The notes under the pieces were generated by a model that was not told where the DNA came from, searched no databases, and saw nothing but the letters and a program-made list of their open reading frames with translations. The position numbers were made by a program, and so were the translations under genes. Shown here one piece after another: positions 3,680 to 50,954 of a stretch of DNA of 64,000 nt. Source of the stretch: an archaeon (GTDB taxonomy: Archaea; Methanobacteriota_B; Thermococci; Methanofastidiosales; NM3); the NCBI GenBank assembly GCA_004212155.1, contig RXIG01000001.1, positions 1 through 64,000 of the forward strand, written 5' to 3'. Positions within the stretch are counted from its first letter, which is position 1; each line of letters starts with the position of its first letter.

Positions 3680-4303
3680 TTATAGCAGCTTGGAAGAGGC
3701 GATCGATGCAATGATGGCCGGCAGCTCGCCAATCGACGAGATCGTGATGTCTGCCTTCACTCCCACCCCGATGACGGGTATCTTTGCTGTGGACCCCGCT
3801 CTCACGTCGACGTTCGTATCACCAACGAGAACCACCTCGTCAGATGAAATGCCCAGTTCGTCGCATGCGGCAAAGAGGATGTCGGGCGCAGGTTTTCCCT
3901 TGCCTGCCCTGTCGGCCGTCATAATGGTGTCGAACGCATCGCCGATGCCAAACTCCTCGAGTATATGTGCCGTGCAGTCGTAGGCGGTGTTCGTCACGAT
4001 CGCCTTCGGGTAGTCGGAGAGCTCCTTGAGGACCCGTTTCGTATCGGGCATGATGCGTACGCTGCCGAGATGCTCAGGATAGACGTTGGTGCAAAAGTCC
4101 GCTATACCCACGTCAAGGCCCAGCCGCGTAAGTATGTCGCGCAGGTCGTCACCCCAGTAGGTGTCCATGAACTCCTCCATGCTGACTGCTTCATGCCCAT
4201 ACGTATCGAGCGCATGGTTGAACGCCTCGAGCCAGGAGGAGCTCGAGTCGATGAGCACACCATCCATGTCAAAAAGAATCCCTGAAAGCTGCATGGTCAC
4301 CAT
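3680..4303 (-). CDS. HAD-superfamily hydrolase (phosphoglycolate phosphatase-like)
   Basis: FDMDGVL motif I, VTN motif II, KPAP motif III, VGDTNVD motif IV. Confidence 0.92.
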   Translation of the reverse strand: MVTMQLSGILFDMDGVLIDSSSSWLEAFNHALDTYGHEAVSMEEFMDTYWGDDLRDILTRLGLDVGIADFCTNVYPEHLGSVRIMPDTKRVLKELSDYPKAIVTNTAYDCTAHILEEFGIGDAFDTIMTADRAGKGKPAPDILFAACDELGISSDEVVLVGDTNVDVRAGSTAKIPVIGVGVKADITISSIGELPAIIASIASSKLL

Positions 4304-4459
4304 TTCTTTTCATCATTCAAAACAGTTACGCTGAGCGCATGATGTGCCATTGACACCATGACATATTGGAATTGTATCGTGGATTCTTCCTAAGGCCGTA
4401 TTAACCACAAACGAAATGGTTATATGATTAAACGACGCATTCCTTCAAAGGTGCATGCC

Positions 4460-5725
4460 ATGAACGTTGGAGAGATCCATGATAAAGCTTCTAACAGCTC
4501 ACTGCTCTCAGACCCCTATGTCAAGAAGGTCCGTGAGCTCATCGGTCGCAACGACCTTTTCGAGAAATCCCCTGATGCGCTCGAGCGAATGCGCAAGGGG
4601 CTCTTGCGCGATGCGTTGTCGTTTTTTTCAAAGAGAAATGAACAGTTCGCACGGATACTGGATACCTGCGGCATAACGCCCGCTTCAGCCGATTTCGGCG
4701 ACCTTGCAAGCCTGGCCGTCCCCTCGGACATGCTTCGCGGCGAGGGACAGTCGCCGTTTCTTATTGACGGTCTGGACGAGGGGGGCGAGACATTTGCTTC
4801 GAGCGGGACCACCGGGAAGTCCCCTGTCAAGATCTATCGAAGCCCCCTTGACCTCGATATCATGATGAAGGCCAACACCGATCTCTTCGAGTACGTCTAT
4901 GGCGGCATGCTGGAGCAGGGCGAGGGCACGGCACTCTTCATGGCGGCACCCGAGCTTCGCGACAGGCTCTACTTCATAGCGTCGGTGCACCTTACCCTCG
5001 AGAACAAAGGGCTTGAGCTCATCTACGGAATGGACATGGTCGAAAGTGACGACCCCTCCCGGCCGTGGATGCGCCTTGAGCCGAATCGGGGCAACATCGT
5101 GAAGTTCCTTAAGGCCAAATCCGAGCCAAAGCTCTTCTTCACGGCTCCTGCAGGCATACACCTCATGTCTCAGCGCTTCGAGACGATGAACTTTTTGCGC
5201 CGATTAGCGTACAAGCTCGCAACTGGTTCGCCACCTGTCAAGCTCGGCAGGGGCGGTGTCATCGTGACGGGGGGAGGCAACAAGGGCGCAAGCGACCTGC
5301 CCCCATACGAGGCGATAGTGGGTGCCGCCCGCAGGCATTATCGTGCGCACGATCGGGGTGGAAGGGACGTAAAGGTCCCGTTCATGGACGTGCTCGGCAT
5401 GACCGAGACGCTTACCGCGCTCATAGACAACTTCGACACCATGGGAAAGGTGCCGCATCCATTGTCTCACGTCTTCCTTCTCGACCCCAAGACGATGGAG
5501 GTCATAGAAGAGGACGGCAGGGAGGGCATCCTTGGCATCTTCAACCCGTTCGTGACATCGTGGCCCGAGATCTTCTACCCGGGCGACATCATGACGTCCG
5601 TCCCGTCTGAACGGTATTACGGCAAGGAGTTCTCATACGTACGCCGTCTGCGCGTCGAGGAGGGATGGGACCTCCAGCGGGCATGCGGCGGTACGATGGA
5701 AGAGCTCATGGGATCACGGGAGTGA
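4460..5725 (+). CDS. LuxE-like acyl-protein synthetase (ANL/PaaK-LuxE family)
   Basis: SSGTTG, TGGGNKG, DVLGMTE, DPKTMEV, C-terminal RACG with Cys in the position of the LuxE acylated Cys; ATG 4460 chosen after AAGGTG (ORF track starts 4424). Confidence 0.8.
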   Translation: MNVGEIHDKASNSSLLSDPYVKKVRELIGRNDLFEKSPDALERMRKGLLRDALSFFSKRNEQFARILDTCGITPASADFGDLASLAVPSDMLRGEGQSPFLIDGLDEGGETFASSGTTGKSPVKIYRSPLDLDIMMKANTDLFEYVYGGMLEQGEGTALFMAAPELRDRLYFIASVHLTLENKGLELIYGMDMVESDDPSRPWMRLEPNRGNIVKFLKAKSEPKLFFTAPAGIHLMSQRFETMNFLRRLAYKLATGSPPVKLGRGGVIVTGGGNKGASDLPPYEAIVGAARRHYRAHDRGGRDVKVPFMDVLGMTETLTALIDNFDTMGKVPHPLSHVFLLDPKTMEVIEEDGREGILGIFNPFVTSWPEIFYPGDIMTSVPSERYYGKEFSYVRRLRVEEGWDLQRACGGTMEELMGSRE

Positions 5726-12698: not shown

Positions 12699-13709
12699 AT
12701 GAAATTGTCATATCTCGTGCGGCGCGGCTTCGCACTGCTCATCTTGGCGCTCATACTCTGTACTCTTGTCCCCGTTGTTTCTGCAGACAAGACGTTTGAT
12801 TATCCCATCTACGATGACCTGCTGGTCTCCGATGAGACCATCGTGATCAACGAGTCCGTCTACGGCGACGTGGTCGCGACCGGTGGCTCGGTGACCATCA
12901 ATGGGGACGTCATGGGCGATGTCCTCGTCTTCTCCGGGAGACTCAACGTCAACGGAACAGTGGCTGGCAAGGTGATCGCCATCGGGGGCGACATCACCAT
13001 CCGTGGAAATGTGCGCAAGGTGTATGTCATCGGCGGCACCGTTGAACTCGAGACATCCGCGCACGTGGACACCGATGCCTACATCATCGGAGGGGCGGTG
13101 ACGAACCACGGGGTGATAATCGACAAGTTATCCGTGATCGCTGGCTCGTTGGAGAACAACGGCCGTGTCGGCAGGGTGGAGGAGAAGGAGTTCAGTTGGC
13201 CCGATACTGGCATCCCCGGCTTTATCAAGAACGTGGCGCGGCTGTTCCATGTGCTCTTTGTCATAGGTCTCTTCATCGTTGGCCTCTTCCTTTTCACGAC
13301 GTTTGGGGACAAGTTCACCGCCATCGAGCGGGAGGTGCGCACATCGCCCATCATCAACACGATCGTGGGATTCGTCCTCATCATCGCCACAGCGATCCTC
13401 TGCACCCTTCTCATGGTGACCATCATCGGCATACCGCTCGGTCTGCTCATAGGACTTCTGGCGTTCATCGCCCTCTTGATCTCGACGCTTTTCGTGTCAC
13501 TTGCGCTCGGCCGGACGATAGCCACGACGTTCAAGCTCGAGGCGCGCGACCTCGTGCTCTTCATCGTTGGCTTCGTTATCCTCAACGTGCTCTTCGTCGT
13601 GCCCTATCTTGGCTTCGTTGTCCGCATCGTGGCGGTGTCGCTCGGATTCGGCGCGCTCTTCATGACCGTCAGGGCGCATTGGGACGATATCAAACAGTGC
13701 GCTTCATAG
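12699..13709 (+). CDS. Polymer-forming (bactofilin-like beta-helix) domain membrane protein
   Basis: Signal peptide, repeats of GDVxxxGGxVTINGxV, then several TM helices; GGAGG SD. Confidence 0.85.
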   Translation: MKLSYLVRRGFALLILALILCTLVPVVSADKTFDYPIYDDLLVSDETIVINESVYGDVVATGGSVTINGDVMGDVLVFSGRLNVNGTVAGKVIAIGGDITIRGNVRKVYVIGGTVELETSAHVDTDAYIIGGAVTNHGVIIDKLSVIAGSLENNGRVGRVEEKEFSWPDTGIPGFIKNVARLFHVLFVIGLFIVGLFLFTTFGDKFTAIEREVRTSPIINTIVGFVLIIATAILCTLLMVTIIGIPLGLLIGLLAFIALLISTLFVSLALGRTIATTFKLEARDLVLFIVGFVILNVLFVVPYLGFVVRIVAVSLGFGALFMTVRAHWDDIKQCAS

Positions 13710-13724
13710 CGCACCTCTCCTTTT

Positions 13725-14975
13725 TTACGGCGGCAGGCTCGCATACCTTCGCTTCTCAAGCGCATAGAGTGCGAACATGAGCCCTGCGCCAGCCATACCT
13801 ATCGCGAACATCAGGGGCCAGACAAGGCTGAGCGAATAGGCCTCGATGTAAAATCCTATGAACATGGGGCTGGCGCTAACTCCCATCGTCATGACAGTCC
13901 CTATGAACGCATTGAAGCGCCCCCTGTGCGACATGGGCGTATGGTTCGCTATGTAGACGCCGGAGTTCGTTGCGTTGAGTATCTCTCCCAGCGTCCATAT
14001 CACCGTCGACACGATAAAGTATGTAAACGACGTGGCAATGAATAGTATCCCGTAGCCCACCGCAAACAGCACGCCGGAGAGGGATATGTTGAGGATGGGC
14101 CGCAATGAACGTGTGAGGCGCGTGAGGAACACGGTCATGATGACGACGACGAGGCCGTTGACCGACATGACGATCCCAAACAGCTGAGGGCCCTTCGCCA
14201 TGCCGAAGACATCCTTGAGCTGCAGGGGCAGCGCGAAGTTATTCTGATTGAGAACGAAGATGAGCAGCATGTTGATGAATGTGAACGCCACGAGGAAAGG
14301 GCGTTTTCTCATGATCGAGACGAACGAGCCGACCTCGGGCCTCTCCTCGTGAGGCACATACGTCCCGCAGCTGTCCTCGTCGAGCTTGGGGTATGTCTCG
14401 GGAACGAATCGGTAGATGAGAAAGACCGATATGAACGTGGTGAACGCGTCGCCAAGGAAGATCCACTCGATATAGTTGTTGTAGAGGAATCCGGCGATGA
14501 GAGGACCTAGCGAGAATCCTATGTTTATGCCAAGGTAGATAAGCGAGAACGCCTCCTTGCGATTTTCCCGTGTCGTGAGGTCGGCTATCATGCACTGGCT
14601 GGCGGGATTTCCCACCCCGTTGGAAAACGACGATGCGATGAGCAGCGCCGGTATCACCATGGAGTTGCCAAGGAACGCGCACGGAACGTAGCATGCGGCG
14701 GCGAGCGTGCGTGCGGAAAGGAGCGTCCATCTCCTTCCGATCCTGTCGGAGAGCCAACCGCCGCCGATCGTGCCCGGCATGTTGACTACGATTGCCAGCG
14801 TGACGATGATGCCGGCCTGAGCATCGCTGATGCCGAGATTGCTTGTCAGGAAGATGGCAAGAAACGGCCGTACGAACGCCCCGGTGGTGTTGACGATGCG
14901 TGAGAAGAAGAGGATGTATATGCTTCGAGGCAACCCTCTGTACATCATGAACGGTTCGGTGAGGCGTTCAAGCAT
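13725..14975 (-). CDS. MFS transporter
   Basis: GWLSDRIGRR motif A; 12-TM pattern; NIGFSLGP. Confidence 0.92.
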   Translation of the reverse strand: MLERLTEPFMMYRGLPRSIYILFFSRIVNTTGAFVRPFLAIFLTSNLGISDAQAGIIVTLAIVVNMPGTIGGGWLSDRIGRRWTLLSARTLAAACYVPCAFLGNSMVIPALLIASSFSNGVGNPASQCMIADLTTRENRKEAFSLIYLGINIGFSLGPLIAGFLYNNYIEWIFLGDAFTTFISVFLIYRFVPETYPKLDEDSCGTYVPHEERPEVGSFVSIMRKRPFLVAFTFINMLLIFVLNQNNFALPLQLKDVFGMAKGPQLFGIVMSVNGLVVVIMTVFLTRLTRSLRPILNISLSGVLFAVGYGILFIATSFTYFIVSTVIWTLGEILNATNSGVYIANHTPMSHRGRFNAFIGTVMTMGVSASPMFIGFYIEAYSLSLVWPLMFAIGMAGAGLMFALYALEKRRYASLPP

Positions 14976-43781: not shown

Positions 43782-44048
43782 TTACTCTATCACATCCTTT
43801 CTGTCGACGACCTTGCCACAGTTCATGCACTTGGCAATCTCCGTTCCGACAAGGTAGTCTCCAAATCCGCAGTCGCACGTAGGGCCGTTTTCTACGTATT
43901 CGACGACAGGCTCTTCCAGTTGAACCGAACCTCCGCAATGCTCGCATGTAAGGCTATCGTCGCCCACAAGCCAGTCTGCAAATCCGCAGTCGCACTTATG
44001 TGCGCCGGTGATGCGATCGTTTTTCTTGATTTTCCTAATCGTTCCCAT
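43782..44048 (-). CDS. Small double zinc-ribbon protein
   Basis: Duplicated CDCGFxDxLVG...CxxCG; GAGGTG SD before MGTIRK. Confidence 0.8.
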   Translation of the reverse strand: MGTIRKIKKNDRITGAHKCDCGFADWLVGDDSLTCEHCGGSVQLEEPVVEYVENGPTCDCGFGDYLVGTEIAKCMNCGKVVDRKDVIE

Positions 44049-44117
44049 TGTTTCCACCTCATACACTATTTCTCGAAGAGATATTAAAATATTCCCTATT
44101 ATCGGGATTGAAAAGGC

Positions 44118-45172: not shown

Positions 45173-46774
45173 TTACCCCTCTAAATCATCGGTCAATTGG
45201 TCGACGAGATGTCCGAACGGTTCGGTGGACCCTTTCATGGCGCCCTTGACAATATAAGGCATATGGGCGCGCACCATCTCGTAGAGCCTCTCGGCCTGTT
45301 CCTTGTTCGTTGAATGGATGTGTTTTGCTTTACGGTCTGCCGACACCATGTCGCCGCGTATCGTCATCTTGAAATCCGGAGTTCGCACCAGGGCGCGCCG
45401 TTCCTTGCGCATCCTGACCTCATGCTCGGGCATCTGCAAATGCTCTTTCTTGTCGTTTAGCACGTATGAGACTTCGCCAAGCTTGATCGAGACGCTGTTC
45501 TTGTCTATTGAGATGTCGCGAGCAGGCCCGTTTGCAACGGTCTTGTCATCGTCCTGTCGGATCACCGTCGTTCCCTCGGTGGTGAGAATGGATATTTCTA
45601 AACCCTCAGGCAACTCCAAGGCCGGGTATTCCTTGTCAACGAACTCCCGGGCCCCTATGCGCACGCGGGCTTGCTTTCCCTTCCGGTCCATGACTTCTAT
45701 GGGACCGAACTTTACATATTCCCCCTCCTCACCCTCAAAGACCTTGATGAACGGAAGGGATATGCGATTACCCCTTTCCTCAAGACGCGCCCGCAGCTGT
45801 TCGATCTCCTCTGCGGATGCATCCTTGTTCGTCGCAAGGATCCTTGCAAGTTCGCGAACCTCCTCCTTGTCGAGGCCGATGCGCTCAAAGTCGCTTGCCG
45901 TTGCTGCGGTGGCAAATTGTGTCGCTGCGACACTCGGCCACTCTGTTCCATAACAATAGCAGTAGCCCATGAATGGTACGTTCTCACGCTGCTTCCCCAT
46001 AGGTACCTCATACGAACCTTGCCCGAAGTAGACGGTGCCGACCATCACATCATCATCAAGGACATCGACGCAGATCGTGCCTTCCTCGATGGTAAGCGGC
46101 ATACGGCCGTCGACTACGAGGTCGTCCTCGATCACCTTCACTTCCTCTGCCACATCGAGTCGCCTCGTCGTGACCTCACGCATCGAATCTGTGATATGGT
46201 ATATTTTCTCCTCTATGAAGTCGAAGTCCTGGGTCTTGGTGAAGACGCCCGATACGTATCCCACAGCAAATGCGATGATGCCGGATATCAGCATCGTGTC
46301 CTGATAGTCCGGGTAGAGGCCAAGCAGTTTGAAGGTGCCCCATAGGACCACGATGACGATGCCCAATCCGTATAGTGTCGAGCGCGCTTGCCAGTATCCC
46401 CTTCTCGTCTTCATGGCTCTGACGGCAAATCCTACTGACACCGATATGATGGAGAGCGCGAGCGCGTAGATGATGTACTGGTCCCACCAAGGCTCCAACC
46501 ACCCCACCAGATCGAAGAAGAGAAGCAGTATCCACACGCCAAAGAGTGTGGTGCCAAGTTTCCTGAAGGCCGTTGAGATCTGCTTGTCGATGGGGTAGAT
46601 CTCCCTGAAACCATCGATGAAAGAACCGATTGCCCACAGGGCGAACATGATAAATAGAAACTGAACCTTGTATTCATACGACCCCAGCACGTCTGAGACG
46701 AGGCTCAGGGCCCACAAGAGGAAGAATACCACTCCTGCTTTGTGCATGATGTCCTTGATCGTATTGACGCTCAT
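45173..46774 (-). CDS. Hypothetical membrane protein (N-terminal ~6 TM, beta-rich C-terminus)
   Basis: 533 aa; directly downstream of the ArsR gene. Confidence 0.8.
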   Translation of the reverse strand: MSVNTIKDIMHKAGVVFFLLWALSLVSDVLGSYEYKVQFLFIMFALWAIGSFIDGFREIYPIDKQISTAFRKLGTTLFGVWILLLFFDLVGWLEPWWDQYIIYALALSIISVSVGFAVRAMKTRRGYWQARSTLYGLGIVIVVLWGTFKLLGLYPDYQDTMLISGIIAFAVGYVSGVFTKTQDFDFIEEKIYHITDSMREVTTRRLDVAEEVKVIEDDLVVDGRMPLTIEEGTICVDVLDDDVMVGTVYFGQGSYEVPMGKQRENVPFMGYCYCYGTEWPSVAATQFATAATASDFERIGLDKEEVRELARILATNKDASAEEIEQLRARLEERGNRISLPFIKVFEGEEGEYVKFGPIEVMDRKGKQARVRIGAREFVDKEYPALELPEGLEISILTTEGTTVIRQDDDKTVANGPARDISIDKNSVSIKLGEVSYVLNDKKEHLQMPEHEVRMRKERRALVRTPDFKMTIRGDMVSADRKAKHIHSTNKEQAERLYEMVRAHMPYIVKGAMKGSTEPFGHLVDQLTDDLEG

Positions 46775-46778
46775 GATA

Positions 46779-47183
46779 TCACTCCTTCTCAGGGTACATT
46801 ACATTATAAAAGTACGATGCCATCTCGAGGGCACGCTTTCCCAGGTCCGTTATCCCGTATTTTCCTCTAAACCGTTCTTGTGATATGAGGCCCACATCCC
46901 TCAGCACGGTCAGATGAAATCGCAAGGGGCTGTGGTCAAGGGTCGTTGCCTCTACGAGTTGGGAAAAATACAGATCGTCGCTTTCAAGAACGACGAGAAG
47001 TTTAAGGCGCTCCTCGTTGGCGAGCGCCTTGAAGAGGTCAGCGCACGTACCGATGTCAAATGACGTAGGCTGGGCTGGTATATGCTGGACCTGGTGCACG
47101 TCGGTCACGACATGGCGTTTGATCTCCTCAATGTCCTTTTTCAATTCGGTGATCTGCACGTGTATGTCTTCATGAGATTCCAT
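46779..47183 (-). CDS. ArsR/SmtB family transcriptional regulator
   Basis: FKALANEERLKLL, FHLTVLRDVGLI, YGITDLG. Confidence 0.9.
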   Translation of the reverse strand: MESHEDIHVQITELKKDIEEIKRHVVTDVHQVQHIPAQPTSFDIGTCADLFKALANEERLKLLVVLESDDLYFSQLVEATTLDHSPLRFHLTVLRDVGLISQERFRGKYGITDLGKRALEMASYFYNVMYPEKE

Positions 47184-47245
47184 GCTTTCACTATATATTA
47201 GTGCATTTGAAGTATATATAAATGTTTCTGAAAAGTAGAATAATG

Positions 47246-49321
47246 TTACCAGACTGCAGCCTGGTATACCCTCTTCGTTATCGGGTCCTGAACGAAGACC
47301 ACGACACCGCCATCCTCGGGAATGGTAAGCGCAAGCGACACGCTGCCCGTGGGATCGAACTGGCTTACGGTGCGCCTATGGCCCTCGATCGCGACGTGAT
47401 AGAACACCTTGGACGAGCCTGGCGGGGACAATCCGTTCTCATACACGACAAAGAAGACATTAAGTTCGGACGGCACGGTGTTGTCCAACGGTTTGATAAA
47501 CGCCTCGACATTCATCTTGCTTGGATCCATGACGGATGGAGTTACCGAAAGGTCGAGGCGCACCTTGAGCGTATCATCGAGAAGCGATTCGGTGGCGGCT
47601 TCGTACTGAGCATAGGTGGACCCGGAACCCCCCTTAATGTTCCTAATACCATCAAACATCGATTGTGGTGTGCCACCCATCGTGTAAAAGCTTGCCCTCT
47701 CATTTGAAAAGATGTTGTTGAACGAGTCGTTCAGATGATACTCGATCGCGACGACATCATCGGGATAGTTGTCCAAAAGGTCGTGTAGGGCGCTTTCAGC
47801 AGCGGGGCAGTACGTGCAATTCGCAGAAGTGAAGAGCTCAACGAACACCCTCTTCTGCTGGCGCTGTGCCGTCATGAGCTCAAACGATGCGTTCTGGGAA
47901 CGTTGGCTGCCCGATGAGATGACGGTCACGTTCACGACGCCTCTCTGATTGGGCTGGGCGCCTTCAGGTACGATGATCGTAACGCCGACGGTGACGTTGC
48001 CACCCGGAGAGACCGTTACCTCTCGTTTTGATATCTCATAGGTCCACCCTGATGGTAGCGAGGGAACAGGCTGTAGAGCATACGTATCGGCAGCATTTCC
48101 GTTGTTTTGGACCTGGAATAGATAGGTAGTGCTTGAGCCTGGCAAGACCACTTTGGAACGCTCTTCGATATTGAGCTCGAATCCGTACGTAGGGCTCACG
48201 ATAAGGGTGAATCGCTGTGTCTTGACATCTCCGGTGTCGTTTTGCGAGGTGACCTGAAGTATCGTTTCTCCCTGGGCATTCCCTTGGGCAGATGATGGGG
48301 ACTTGAGCGTGAGCACGATGTTTTTCGAACCGTTCGGTTCGACCGTTACCTTCTCGTGCAGGAGCGAACCAGACCAGCCCGCTGTGGTGTTTTTCAATTG
48401 AAAGTAATACGTATCCGTGCTCGAGCCGTTATTTTGCACCGTCGCGTTGAACGTCGCCGTTTCTCCGGCAGTCACGAACTTCTCAGTCGTTGCAGCGATG
48501 AGCTCATACGATGCAGTGGCCTCGGATGTGACATTGACCGTCAGCGAGTCGCGGTACTTACCGTCACTCGAGCGTGCCTCGATGCGGATCGTGGCCTCGC
48601 CCGGACCCGCGCTGGCCGATGTCGACACGCGAAGCACGAGCGACTCGTCTTGCTCCGGTTCTACAGATCCCGTATACTTATGCCCATAATCCGTCGTGGC
48701 ATCAAGCAGTGAGACGCTCCACCCCTGTGGCATCGACGTGCCTCCAGCAGCAACGGTAACATCGTAACGTGAGAGGATGTTGCCTGTGTTTTTTAGTGCG
48801 ACCGTGAAGTCTGTGGTCTGACCAGGTAACACGCTCTTTTGCGTCGTGTCGACCGATAGGTCCGGCGCATATCCGACATAGAGCGTCGATGCATAGAGCG
48901 TCGAAGCGAGCAAAAGGAGCACGATCACGAAGTTGAGCAACAAAAGCACCTTTCCACCACGCGGCCGCTTCGACGGCCCCCTCGGCGGATCCTCTTTATC
49001 TGGCCTCTCTGGAGGGGCACGCGGTGGCGGACGTTGTGTCGCCGCCGGCTTTTGCCTCATGGTTGGTGGCGGGGCAGAGGCACGAACGGGCGCTGAGGGC
49101 GTATACGATAAAGGGGGTGATTGGCGCACGCTGCGGCCACCTGGCGGAGCGCCGCGTTGGTAGTCAAACATCGATGTAGGATGGTAACAGTGAGGGCACG
49201 TCTTGTGCGAATAAAGGTGCTCGCGGACGCATTGCTGGTGAAATGGTGTCTTGCAATAGGTGCAGTGTACCATGTCCCGTTGTGTAATGGGTGCGTTGCA
49301 CAATTCACACGTATGCGCCAT
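47246..49321 (-). CDS. Multidomain membrane protein: C4HC3 RING/PHD-like finger, Pro-rich linker, TM, Ig-like (COG1470/NEW3-type) repeats, thioredoxin-like CxxC domain
   Basis: CELC...CTYCKTPFHQQC...CPHC; TM VLLLLNFVIVLLLL; three NxG..D/xY...GW repeats; VELFTSANCTYCP. Confidence 0.85.
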   Translation of the reverse strand: MAHTCELCNAPITQRDMVHCTYCKTPFHQQCVREHLYSHKTCPHCYHPTSMFDYQRGAPPGGRSVRQSPPLSYTPSAPVRASAPPPTMRQKPAATQRPPPRAPPERPDKEDPPRGPSKRPRGGKVLLLLNFVIVLLLLASTLYASTLYVGYAPDLSVDTTQKSVLPGQTTDFTVALKNTGNILSRYDVTVAAGGTSMPQGWSVSLLDATTDYGHKYTGSVEPEQDESLVLRVSTSASAGPGEATIRIEARSSDGKYRDSLTVNVTSEATASYELIAATTEKFVTAGETATFNATVQNNGSSTDTYYFQLKNTTAGWSGSLLHEKVTVEPNGSKNIVLTLKSPSSAQGNAQGETILQVTSQNDTGDVKTQRFTLIVSPTYGFELNIEERSKVVLPGSSTTYLFQVQNNGNAADTYALQPVPSLPSGWTYEISKREVTVSPGGNVTVGVTIIVPEGAQPNQRGVVNVTVISSGSQRSQNASFELMTAQRQQKRVFVELFTSANCTYCPAAESALHDLLDNYPDDVVAIEYHLNDSFNNIFSNERASFYTMGGTPQSMFDGIRNIKGGSGSTYAQYEAATESLLDDTLKVRLDLSVTPSVMDPSKMNVEAFIKPLDNTVPSELNVFFVVYENGLSPPGSSKVFYHVAIEGHRRTVSQFDPTGSVSLALTIPEDGGVVVFVQDPITKRVYQAAVW

Positions 49322-49407
49322 AACCGTTCACTTTGTTTCCCTATACATAAAAGTTTATTTATAAATATATAAATCATTGCACTACGTGTGGCGCCCTATT
49401 GCATCCT

Positions 49408-50025
49408 TCACTGCTGAGAGTTCACGTATTGTTCAAATGTCATTTCCTTGTACGAACCAGTGGACACATATTCGAGCATCAGTCTGAACTCGTACGGGGG
49501 TTTGTACCCCGGCACCACGTCATACCCGGGCACTACCTTGATCAACGAACCATCGGGCGAAAGGAAAACGGAGCTTGGCGTGCCCGGGACCCGATACTTG
49601 CTTTCGATGTATAGTCCTGTGATCTCCGGATTCTCATCAGATATCGGGTCTGATGACCATATGTTCACAGACACCGATTCGAAGTGCTCCCCGAGATAGG
49701 TTGTCACATCCTCGTCCATGAACGTGTCGCTTTGCATGAGGTCACAGTAGGGGCAGTTGCGCCTCCATAAGTAGATGTAGACGTATGTGTCGTTCTCTTG
49801 TGCCGCTCTGAGGGCGTCATCGTACGATTGCCACCCGATAGGCGACACCGGTGCTGCAGTCGTTGTCGGCGCCTGCGTCGTTGGGGGCGACGTGGTAGTG
49901 GGGGACTGCGTCGTTGGCGCCGCGGTTGTCGTTGGAGGGGGCGTCGTGGTGGACGTATCGTCTCCACCGACACATCCCGCGAGTAGCACCATCACTAGTA
50001 GGATCAATAATGCCTTGTATCGCAT
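49408..50025 (-). CDS. Thioredoxin-fold (SoxW-like) lipoprotein
   Basis: Lipobox LLAGC, Thr/Pro linker, CPYC, cis-Pro motif GTP; start reassigned to MRYKALL. Confidence 0.88.
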   Translation of the reverse strand: MRYKALLILLVMVLLAGCVGGDDTSTTTPPPTTTAAPTTQSPTTTSPPTTQAPTTTAAPVSPIGWQSYDDALRAAQENDTYVYIYLWRRNCPYCDLMQSDTFMDEDVTTYLGEHFESVSVNIWSSDPISDENPEITGLYIESKYRVPGTPSSVFLSPDGSLIKVVPGYDVVPGYKPPYEFRLMLEYVSTGSYKEMTFEQYVNSQQ

Positions 50026-50042
50026 GGGAACACCGTGGAGCA

Positions 50043-50954
50043 TCAGTGGCGCTTCAGGTACCGAGCCACGTTGAGCGCCGCCTTGCATCCGTCGCCTACG
50101 GCAGTGGTCACCTGTTTGTACTTTTCGTTCGTGACATCACCGACTGCATAGACTCCCTTGATCGATGTCTCCTGCTTGTCGTTCACTCGAATATAGCCGC
50201 TCTTTGTAAGGTCGATGCCGGTCCCTGCAAGGAACTCCGTGTTCGGTTTCTTGCCTATGTTCACAAAGATCCCATCGGCCTCCAACACTTGTTCGGAGCC
50301 ACCATCGCCGTTGTATTCGATGACCACTCTTTCGAGCTTGTCGGATCCCTCGAGGCGCTTTACCTCCGCACTGGTAATGACCTCGACAGAACTGTCAAAA
50401 ATCTTGTCGAGATAGATGTCTTCCTTCGCCTCGAGCTCGTCCGTCGGTGTGACGAGCACGACGCTCTCGGCGATCTCCTCAAGGTAAAGTGCGGCGGTGA
50501 TACCAGGGATGCCCTTGCCCGCGACGACCGTCTTCTTGCCCCTGTAGAGCGGGCCGTCGCATGTCGTGCAGTACACGACGCCACGACCCTGGAATGTGTC
50601 CTCTCCTTCCACCTCGAGCTTCTTGTGGGTCAGTCCAAGTGAGAGTATGATGGTCTTGGCATCTACCTGTTCATCGCCCATATCGATCTTCATCGAATCG
50701 AAGTCGACGCTTTTTACCGTTGCGTATTTGATATCGACATCCGTTCTTTGCACCTGCTCGGCGATCCTCTGGGCAAGCTCCATGCCCTTGATGCCGTCGG
50801 GGAATCCCGGATAGTTCTCAATGACGCTCGCATACGCCATATACCCTCCGAGCATCTCCTTTTCTATGAGCAGTGTCTTGAGATTGGAACGGACGCAGTA
50901 GAGGGCGGCGGTCATCCCTCCCGGTCCACCGCCTATGATCACAACATCGTACAT
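50043..50954 (-). CDS. trxB: Thioredoxin reductase-like flavoprotein
   Basis: GGGPGG, IENYPG, GRGVVYCTTCDG, TSIKGVYAVGD. Confidence 0.9.
   Translation of the reverse strand: MYDVVIIGGGPGGMTAALYCVRSNLKTLLIEKEMLGGYMAYASVIENYPGFPDGIKGMELAQRIAEQVQRTDVDIKYATVKSVDFDSMKIDMGDEQVDAKTIILSLGLTHKKLEVEGEDTFQGRGVVYCTTCDGPLYRGKKTVVAGKGIPGITAALYLEEIAESVVLVTPTDELEAKEDIYLDKIFDSSVEVITSAEVKRLEGSDKLERVVIEYNGDGGSEQVLEADGIFVNIGKKPNTEFLAGTGIDLTKSGYIRVNDKQETSIKGVYAVGDVTNEKYKQVTTAVGDGCKAALNVARYLKRH

Follow-up and report, generated by a model that had tools for sequence, protein, structure and literature searches.

A predicted cytoplasmic RING finger joined to a thioredoxin-fold surface module in a membrane protein of Methanofastidiosales archaea

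RING fingers are a hallmark of eukaryotic ubiquitin ligases, and finding one on an archaeal membrane protein with a thioredoxin-type ectodomain raises the question of what such a finger does there. The protein in question, 691 aa long, is encoded on the reverse strand of a 64,000-nt stretch of DNA (hereafter the window; positions 1 to 64,000 of contig RXIG01000001.1, assembly GCA_004212155.1, Methanofastidiosales, NM3). The window lies within a 207-kb contig of a 1.49-Mb metagenome-assembled genome (MAG) that is 89.8% complete, with close relatives labelled "Methanomicrobia archaeon", "Candidatus Methanofastidiosia archaeon" or "uncultured Thermococci archaeon". Comparisons covered 133 species genomes of the class and 34 genomes of the order, with families labelled f and genera g. 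The union of a RING with a surface thioredoxin-type domain is a new combination of two known domains and is known from a handful of MAG proteins: a word-index search of 5.8 billion proteins returned five near-full-length members, the window's own counted, and full-length finger-bearing orthologues are confined to the window's family f1 (five genomes end to end, two more broken by contig ends). Our answer, held with some reserve, is that the protein is a surface thiol-disulfide oxidoreductase fed by a thioredoxin/CcdA pathway and carrying a cytoplasmic RING "handle" for partner recruitment.

From the N to the C terminus the protein consists of a C4HC3 finger, a Pro/Arg linker, one transmembrane (TM) helix, three immunoglobulin (Ig)-like domains and a CxxC domain. 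Analysis of the open reading frame (ORF), motifs and domains bears out the layout proposed in the first-pass annotation, which was made from the letters and had listed a finger, a Pro-rich linker, one TM helix, three Ig repeats and a CTYC fold. The linker varies in length and composition between relatives; here, residues 50-123 (74 aa) contain 20 Pro and 11 Arg. Lys and Arg number eight in the 30 aa on the N-terminal side of the helix and two on its C-terminal side, and the C-terminal part of the protein has 11 N-x-S/T sequons. Seven cysteines lie in the finger and two form the CTYC motif (C502/C505), with no others in the protein. The charge difference across the only TM helix (positive-inside rule), together with the sequons, predicts that the finger and the thioredoxin domain lie on opposite sides of the membrane, as had been proposed from the start. 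This supports a type-II, N-in/C-out, single-pass protein whose finger is in the cytoplasm and whose domains beyond the helix are extracellular.

The spacing of the finger (C5-x2-C8-x11-C20-x2-C23-x4-H28-x2-C31-x10-C42-x2-C45) is exactly the C4HC3 pattern given earlier, an arrangement that prokaryotic RINGs have according to a review (PMC11354881). All eight ligands and P43 are invariant in 14/14 module copies aligned from the order, and G57 and P59 are nearly so. An AlphaFold2 (AF2) model on this 14-copy alignment, with a predicted local distance difference test score (pLDDT) of 88, has a beta-hairpin and a helix, with an additional strand spanning residues 54-56 (block pLDDT 87). In a Foldseek search against the PDB the top rows were all RING or U-box entries (e.g. 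3lrq, Rad18 2y43, RING1B/BMI1 and TRAF6) at query TM-scores (TMq) of 0.58-0.76, the domain entries superposing with root mean square deviations of 1.0-2.2. VIA-align returned 88 chains at Z >= 5 among 48,161 representative chains, the best 50 of the 88 being RING/U-box/SP-RING or spliceosome entries; the latter we take to be the Prp19 U-box. Searched against 1.84 billion representative proteins, a profile of the finger gave 4281 matches at E <= 1e-3; 48 of the 150 listed were scanned, of which 32 carry zf-RING_2 at E <= 1e-5, 13 no family and 3 other families only. Several relatives built alike at the N terminus score above the zf-RING_2 cut-off (P0095, 32.2; P0114, 33.5; P0097, 50.9). A PHD finger or a generic zinc ribbon was ruled out, the Pfam PHD match being weaker (18.5 bits) and no PHD being found among the structural matches listed. 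On the predicted structure, then, the finger is a true RING-type cross-brace fold, and the proposal to decide between RING and PHD or zinc ribbon by AF2 and structure search ended with the RING/U-box fold.

The Ig-like repeats (about residues 150-262, 263-375 and 376-484) are homologous to one another by local alignment (z 9.4-17.7; 0/300 shuffles reach the score), domain 1 giving z = 9.4-10.8 in its pairs and domain 2 against domain 3 giving z = 17.7. The region exceeds the Pfam cut-offs of CARDB (152-232, 25.9 bits), NPCBM_assoc and FixG_C, and its 85.1 bits for the NCBIfam family choice_anch_T lie above the cut-off of 70. Over the last roughly 207 residues, a 15-sequence alignment from three families (25-51% identity) has E11, T14, C18, C21, E25, H45, D48 and eight more positions invariant, the CxxC being kept in 15/15. 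A profile of this segment matched Methanocaldococcus jannaschii thioredoxin (1fo5, 2.6e-7), HBP35 (5y1a, 3.9e-7) and DUF1223 (2axo, 9.4e-6) in the PDB, and the alignment to 5y1a residues 34-87, which spans W-C-G-Y-C-P, places the CxxC on the HBP35 C48/C51 stretch. The AF2 model of the module (pLDDT 93.4, predicted TM-score 0.90) has a thioredoxin fold followed by a beta-sandwich, being all-beta from about model residue 103; Foldseek matched it to 2axo (E = 2.2e-13, TMq 0.70), 5y1a (E = 2.2e-11, TMq 0.80) and Omp28 2r2c (3e-4).

With HBP35 (5y1a), DUF1223 (Atu2684, 2axo) and the Omp28-related (seleno)proteins, the C-terminal 207 aa share the thioredoxin fold plus beta-sandwich build, an E-x-F-T-x3-C-x2-C-P and H-x-N-D signature and an extracytoplasmic location. 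Unlike these proteins, the one described here belongs to an archaeal host, has a TM-anchored Ig stalk and a fused cytoplasmic RING, and is not an outer-membrane protein or one secreted by the type IX secretion system. HBP35 of Porphyromonas gingivalis needs C48 and C51 for insulin reduction in vitro (PMC2907840). The ectodomain is, by this resemblance, most likely an extracytoplasmic (surface) thiol-disulfide oxidoreductase.

A CPYC lipoprotein and trxB lie upstream in the same orientation, as the first-pass annotation had stated and as ORFs and family matches confirm. That annotation had also been concerned about a missing CcdA. No CcdA occurs within the 64-kb window, so that this part stands, and elsewhere in the genome DsbD_TM is matched with 58.4 bits at G000:C8:15239-15889, inside a 487-aa ORF. 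As read from its sequence, of which the DsbD_TM part was family-tested, contig C8 14579-16042(+) encodes a DsbD-like fusion protein in which a signal sequence and two thioredoxin (Trx)/glutaredoxin-like CxxC domains are joined to DsbD_TM. Two related proteins are encoded on the same contig: directly before it, 13452-14582(+) gives a repeat-rich surface protein with a C-terminal anchor, and further along 3727-5064(+) gives a protein with a signal sequence, a thioredoxin-like domain bearing CxxC, TPR-like repeats and a TM helix.

Within f1, ccdA is not gene-linked to the RING gene. In all three genomes of genus g8, from a sister family, a RING-less homologue stands directly before a membrane-anchored Thioredoxin and then CcdA (at locus L028, Pfam Thioredoxin 55.6 bits and DsbD_TM 61.7 bits), operons that support an independent link between the ectodomain family and an extracytoplasmic reducing pathway. 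Compared with CcdA/DsbD-dependent pathways of the TlpA/ResA/DsbH type, the present system is alike in its outside thioredoxin lipoprotein and its genomic DsbD_TM conduit. It differs in that the acceptor would be an Ig-stalked HBP35-type protein, not a cytochrome-maturation or methionine sulfoxide reductase enzyme, and in that the lipoprotein gene of the window has as its coupled partner the gene of the cytoplasmic thioredoxin reductase (TrxR) instead of ccdA.

The RING itself is, by its sequence contexts, a movable cassette that is specific to the Methanofastidiosia/Theionarchaea clade and sits on many unrelated membrane proteins. Elsewhere in the order, membrane proteins of other, unrelated kinds start with the same finger, strand and R/K-G-x-P motif. 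These include OppC-type ABC permeases (BPD_transp_1 61.6 bits, plus OppC_N) at L039:2307-3518(-), L041:2147-3388(-) and L044:1751-2986(-), in genomes whose relatives bear the label Theionarchaea, as well as 625-aa ectodomain proteins and TM proteins of 188-404 aa; the cassette-bearing ectodomain proteins of the sister lineages can be described as beta-propeller-like. In genus g6 a protein of roughly 195 aa consists of the finger, an acidic linker and a TM helix. At E <= 1e-5 the module was found in 23/133 genomes of the class, every one in the same order: f1 (5/6, plus the window's own genome), f3 (13/17) and f4 (4/4), with none in f2 (0/6), f5 (0/2) or f6 (0/97). A word-index profile search gave 42 proteins at E <= 1e-6, and all 13 of the source-named ones are labelled Methanofastidiosia, Methanofastidiosum or Theionarchaea, two of them annotated as "RING finger protein" or "PHD finger domain-containing protein". 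In the finger-less ectodomain homologues of f2 and f4 the N terminus is a signal anchor or a short tail of charged residues. A literature search, the Burroughs et al. 2011 survey lying outside its coverage, found no publication linking Methanofastidiosia or Theionarchaea to ubiquitin or RING.

Starting from the observed folds, topology signals, distribution and gene contexts, we infer the following on redox activity, on the course of the electrons and on partners of the RING. The three Ig-like domains would hold the HBP35/DUF1223/Omp28-type CxxC module out from the cell. Electrons would be supplied by the cytoplasmic TrxR/Trx system, cross the membrane through the CcdA-fusion protein of contig C8 and pass to the neighbouring DsbH/DsbD-gamma-like thioredoxin lipoprotein, from which they would reach the CxxC module and then surface substrates. 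The flexible Pro/Arg linker would tether the RING inside the cell. Because the cassette heads unrelated membrane proteins in sister lineages, the RING is best read as a general cytoplasmic handle that may recruit partners (e.g. for turnover, clustering or E3-like tagging) and not as a dedicated redox transducer.

A number of observations count against a RING-bearing oxidoreductase fed in this way. On the side of the finger, the Foldseek E-values of the 65-residue RING model are all >1e-3 (best 2.3e-3); the best 50 VIA-align rows have Z 5.9-8.9, and the tool cautions that Z <8 may be a common arrangement; and the Pfam scores stay below the cut-offs for zf-RING_2 (PF13639, 19.9 versus 27.3 bits) and Prok-RING_1 (PF14446, 22.4 versus 29.1 bits; 27.4 bits in a six-frame search). 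The distal module likewise scores below cut-offs, with 30.1 versus 30.7 for DUF1223 (PF06764), 63.4 versus 200 for Omp28_seleno and 38.4 versus 150 for lipoprot_Omp28, the NCBIfam cut-offs tried besides PF06764 being NF045500 and NF033782. As PMC2907840 describes, HBP35 can complement a dsbA mutant of E. coli, so that the module may act as either an oxidase or a reductase. The f2 homologues and the g7 homologue were found without a Trx or CcdA neighbour. In f1 the RING occurs in exactly one copy per genome, on the 691-aa-type protein, and its retention solely there may point to a role particular to this protein, not a general one.

Gene linkage in f1 is double-edged too. The three genes (trxB, lipoprotein and RING gene) are co-oriented neighbours in 4/4 assessable f1 genomes (the window's own, G028, G029 and G027) from 3 genera, so the linkage does extend beyond one genome, which the first-pass annotation had made a test of its proposal. 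The conserved synteny is wider than the trio, taking in leucyl-tRNA synthetase (LeuRS), ArsR, 533-aa membrane protein, AIRS and CPSF genes, and because housekeeping genes are syntenic as well, the linkage reflects shared ancestry as much as function. In G027, moreover, three genes separate the lipoprotein from the RING gene (L022:5352-7771(+)); by eye, they resemble cobalamin lower-ligand genes.

Among the alternatives, one that we consider unlikely is a transmembrane redox sensor: the outer CxxC, by its state, would govern a RING ligase of E3 type in the cytoplasm, which would attach a ubiquitin-like (SAMP/ThiS-type) modifier to targets. It accords with the RING fold and the opposite-side topology, with ligands that are conserved over three genera of f1 on the family's only RING copy, and with the presence in the window's genome of one ThiF E1-like gene and four ThiS/MoaD-like genes. 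Within the order, genome G030 has ubiquitin-type loci. At L061 (G030:C41:1002-4259) a receptor-like protein of 434 aa, with a CarboxypepD_reg/PEGA ectodomain, a TM helix and a C-terminal C4HC3 RING, is encoded directly before an E2 (44.4 bits for UQ_con) and an E1 (162.2 bits for ThiF); a different contig, at L060 (G030:C133:1959-5363), has the gene of a 109-aa protein ending in GG and, after it, that of a second E2 (50.8 bits). Because their GC content is like that of other G030 loci and the best relatives of a flanking gene are in the same family, these contigs look native rather than contaminant.

Against this E3-type reading stands the machinery of the genome itself, in which, at 89.8% completeness, no UQ_con (E2), Prok-JAB or JAB match was found at E <= 0.1; the same UQ_con search does detect the E2 in G030. 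With the G030 E2 and ubiquitin proteins as queries, tblastn against the window's genome gave a best E = 1.4 (2.2 for the two E2s alone), and a UQ_con E2 occurs in 1/34 genomes of the order versus 23 with the RING module. The genome check called for in the first-pass annotation thus turned up E1-like, ThiS/MoaD-like and CcdA genes, and neither E2 nor JAB. A ubiquitin-type operon around the sole ThiF gene was considered and rejected, as ORF reading found neither a modifier nor an E2 next to that gene, its neighbours seeming to include a helicase-like gene and one for a membrane metalloprotease-like protein. RING-less orthologues and RING-ABC permease fusions also speak against redox-specific coupling, and a single helix together with a roughly 70-residue disordered linker offers no obvious way to transmit thiol state.

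Comparison with srfp, the E3 of Caldiarchaeum subterraneum, points the same way. PMC5654768 names I30, W58 and R69 as residues that matter in srfp. With equivalences set by eye from the motif, I30 corresponds to L7 and is hydrophobic in 14/14 copies, in keeping with the E3-type model, whereas W58 corresponds to H35, with no W in any of the 14 copies, and the linchpin R69 to Y46, with K/R in 4/14. Prok-RING_1 fingers and srfp share with the window RING the C4HC3 order, the predicted RING/U-box fold and the first-loop hydrophobic residue, and a related RING stands in an E2-E1 operon of one genome of the order, as in archaeal srfp-type systems. Unlike srfp, the window RING is N-terminal on a type-II membrane protein, has no E2 found in its genome and keeps neither the W58 nor the R69 equivalent; it also differs from Prok-RING_1/srfp in its clade-specific C-terminal strand with R/K-G-x-P and its sub-cut-off scores. 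The possible E3-like role suggested at the outset is therefore not upheld, given the absence of an E2 or JAB match in this 89.8% complete genome and the loss of two of the three srfp residues. As for the transmembrane relay from external redox state to the finger, its true RING, its opposite sides and, in a sister family, its connection with a reducing pathway hold, but nothing ties the RING to thiol sensing: because the cassette sits on unrelated membrane proteins and RING-less orthologues exist, the RING is not tied to redox function. A redox-to-RING signalling relay is speculation.

Equally improbable, in our estimate, is a structural or ligand-binding surface protein, with an Ig stalk, an HBP35-like haem- or metal-binding head and a structural CxxC, whose linkage to TrxB and the lipoprotein is coincidental. 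HBP35, which gives the best TM-score (0.80) of the distal module, binds hemin through residues 135-344 with no need of its CxxC (PMC2907840). Archaeal surface proteins typically have features such as the three CARDB/NEW3-type domains and the 11 sequons; homologues without redox neighbours in f2 and g7 and the TATA-like box of the RING gene fit here as well. A CxxC plus E-x2-T/H-x2-D signature that is invariant in 15/15 homologues of such divergence argues against a merely structural motif, as do the Trx and CcdA operons of the g8 genomes and the adjacency of the Trx lipoprotein in the assessable f1 genomes.

Methanofastidiosia and Theionarchaea form a euryarchaeal clade far from Asgard and Aigarchaeota. 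One might picture this clade evolving its own membrane-anchored RING ligases, once with eukaryote-type ubiquitin, E1 and E2 (still in one genome), such that the f1 RING would now work E2-free, directly with a UbaA-like E1 and SAMP-type modifiers, coupling the extracellular thiol-redox state to cytoplasmic protein tagging; we regard this as a quite improbable conjecture. Eukaryotic PA-TM-RING/ATL ligases likewise join an ectodomain through one TM helix to a RING of RING-H2-like sequence in the cytoplasm. The likeness lies in these three parts; the window protein has the opposite orientation, with the RING N-terminal, no ubiquitin or E2 was found in its genome and the lineage is unrelated. Least credible of all is a RING that serves as a membrane tether, like the zinc domain of anti-sigma factors, and holds a regulator (e.g. 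the downstream ArsR) until an outside signal releases it: with a cytoplasmic zinc domain first, then one TM helix and a sensor outside, the layout resembles that of the zinc-binding (ZAS) anti-sigma factors, and arsR follows the RING gene in 5/5 f1 contexts (window counted), but that adjacency carries little weight in a neighbourhood that is syntenic throughout, arsR has its own TATA-like box and is coupled to a different membrane protein, RING cassettes of other families have no adjoining regulator, and the fold is that of a RING, not the helical ZAS fold. Neighbours of the Methanofastidiosum RING cassette are a downstream ORF of 563-591 aa and two divergent upstream ORFs, read as housekeeping from sequence.

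The surroundings of the gene are summarized in Table 1. TrxB scores 161.9 bits for Pyr_redox_2 and 312.7 bits for TIGR01292, under the equivalog cut-off of 343.45, and its best PDB relative is the TrxR 2q7v (E = 9e-60). An HRR-type motif is the NADPH 2'-phosphate motif; none was seen in TrxB after the G-K-G-I-P-G stretch, and its electron donor may perhaps not be NADPH. The longest ORF of the lipoprotein reaches 50088 (226 aa) and has the lipobox LLAGC (Cys codon 49972-49974) followed by a Thr/Pro-rich stalk; it matches Thioredoxin_2 (53.1 bits), Thioredox_DsbH (41.4) and Thioredoxin_7 (27.4) in Pfam, and 2lst (1.1e-9), 4fyb and DsbH 2ju5 in the PDB. Since the trxB stop overlaps the lipoprotein ATG (TGATG), the two genes are probably translationally coupled. 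The spacer upstream of the RING gene is 86 nt, and because the gene has its own TATA-like box it is probably a separate transcription unit, the trio forming a cluster but probably not one operon. The archaeal TATA consensus TTTAWATA has 12 matches in the window versus 0.87 expected, a number reached in 0/100 shuffles. Downstream, 45173-47183(-) comprises arsR, a 4-nt gap and a gene for a 533-aa multi-pass membrane protein without a Pfam family, a pair that recurs in the same f1 contexts as arsR.

Table 1. Positions of the RING gene, its parts and its neighbours in the window
Feature	Position	Strand	Evidence
trxB, low-Mr thioredoxin reductase, 303 aa, active site CTTC	50043..50954	-	Pyr_redox_2, TIGR01292, PDB relative
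Predicted thioredoxin lipoprotein, likely ATG at 50041-50043	49408..50043	-	ORF, families, PDB relatives
CPYC active-site motif of lipoprotein (Cys 112 and 115 of ORF)	49744..49755	-	Sequence
TATA-like box TTTATATA, 45-52 nt upstream of RING gene ATG	49366..49373	-	TTTAWATA match
RING-TM-Ig x3-thioredoxin gene	47246..49321	-	ORF, 691 aa plus stop
Predicted cytoplasmic C4HC3 RING finger, residues 1-49	49175..49321	-	Ligand conservation, AF2, structural matches, profile matches
Post-RING strand with R/K-G-x-P motif, residues 50-60	49142..49174	-	Alignment and AF2 model
Pro/Arg-rich linker, predicted cytoplasmic, residues 61-123	48953..49141	-	Composition
Single transmembrane helix, residues about 124-147	48881..48952	-	Only Kyte-Doolittle peak
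Ig-like domain 1, CARDB type	48536..48874	-	CARDB match and repeat alignment
Ig-like domain 2	48197..48535	-	FixG_C, choice_anch_T, repeat alignment
Ig-like domain 3	47870..48196	-	FixG_C at 399-479, NPCBM_assoc at 394-459, repeat alignment
Thioredoxin-fold subdomain of HBP35/DUF1223/Omp28-type module; CTYC at 47807-47818	47567..47869	-	Alignment, PDB profile matches, AF2, Foldseek
Beta-sandwich subdomain of HBP35/DUF1223/Omp28-type module	47249..47566	-	AF2, Foldseek
Second copy of TTTATATA, TATA-like box of arsR	47215-47222	-	TTTAWATA match
ArsR/SmtB-type regulator gene, a neighbour	46779..47183	-	HTH_5 30.1 bits; NF033788 42.1 (cut-off 55)

Two other proteins of the window were looked at. 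A second RING, suggested at about 39.2 kb by a weak Prok-RING_1 match, was dismissed, its sequence being read as a zinc ribbon; the protein is presumably a Csl4-like exosome subunit with a C-terminal zinc ribbon. A 94-aa protein at 43782-44066(-) has two zinc-ribbon-like CxxC...CxxC halves and sub-threshold Pfam matches only (e.g. DZR).

The host is an uncultured archaeon of oil fields, and DNA contigs of crude-oil and oil-field metagenomes contain 25-70% of the words sampled. Two short contigs from RNA libraries, at 49081-49328 (X20) and 48286-48453 (X21), match the RING gene with 0 differences and give a weak hint of its expression; such contigs cannot show starts, strand or co-transcription and may be DNA carry-over, and the parts they leave uncovered are uninformative.

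According to PMC5654768, archaeal RINGs have so far been studied in operons of Aigarchaeota and Asgard archaea. A RING cassette spread over the membrane proteins of a euryarchaeal order, mostly without an E2, offers a natural test set and opens the questions of what a RING does without an E2 and whether membrane-tethered RINGs came before or after the ubiquitin machinery. With the ectodomain, the HBP35/DUF1223/Omp28 thioredoxin-like family, still poorly understood, now reaches the surface of archaeal cells, and the operons with Trx and CcdA connect it with a reducing pathway and so suggest a biochemical role that can be tested.

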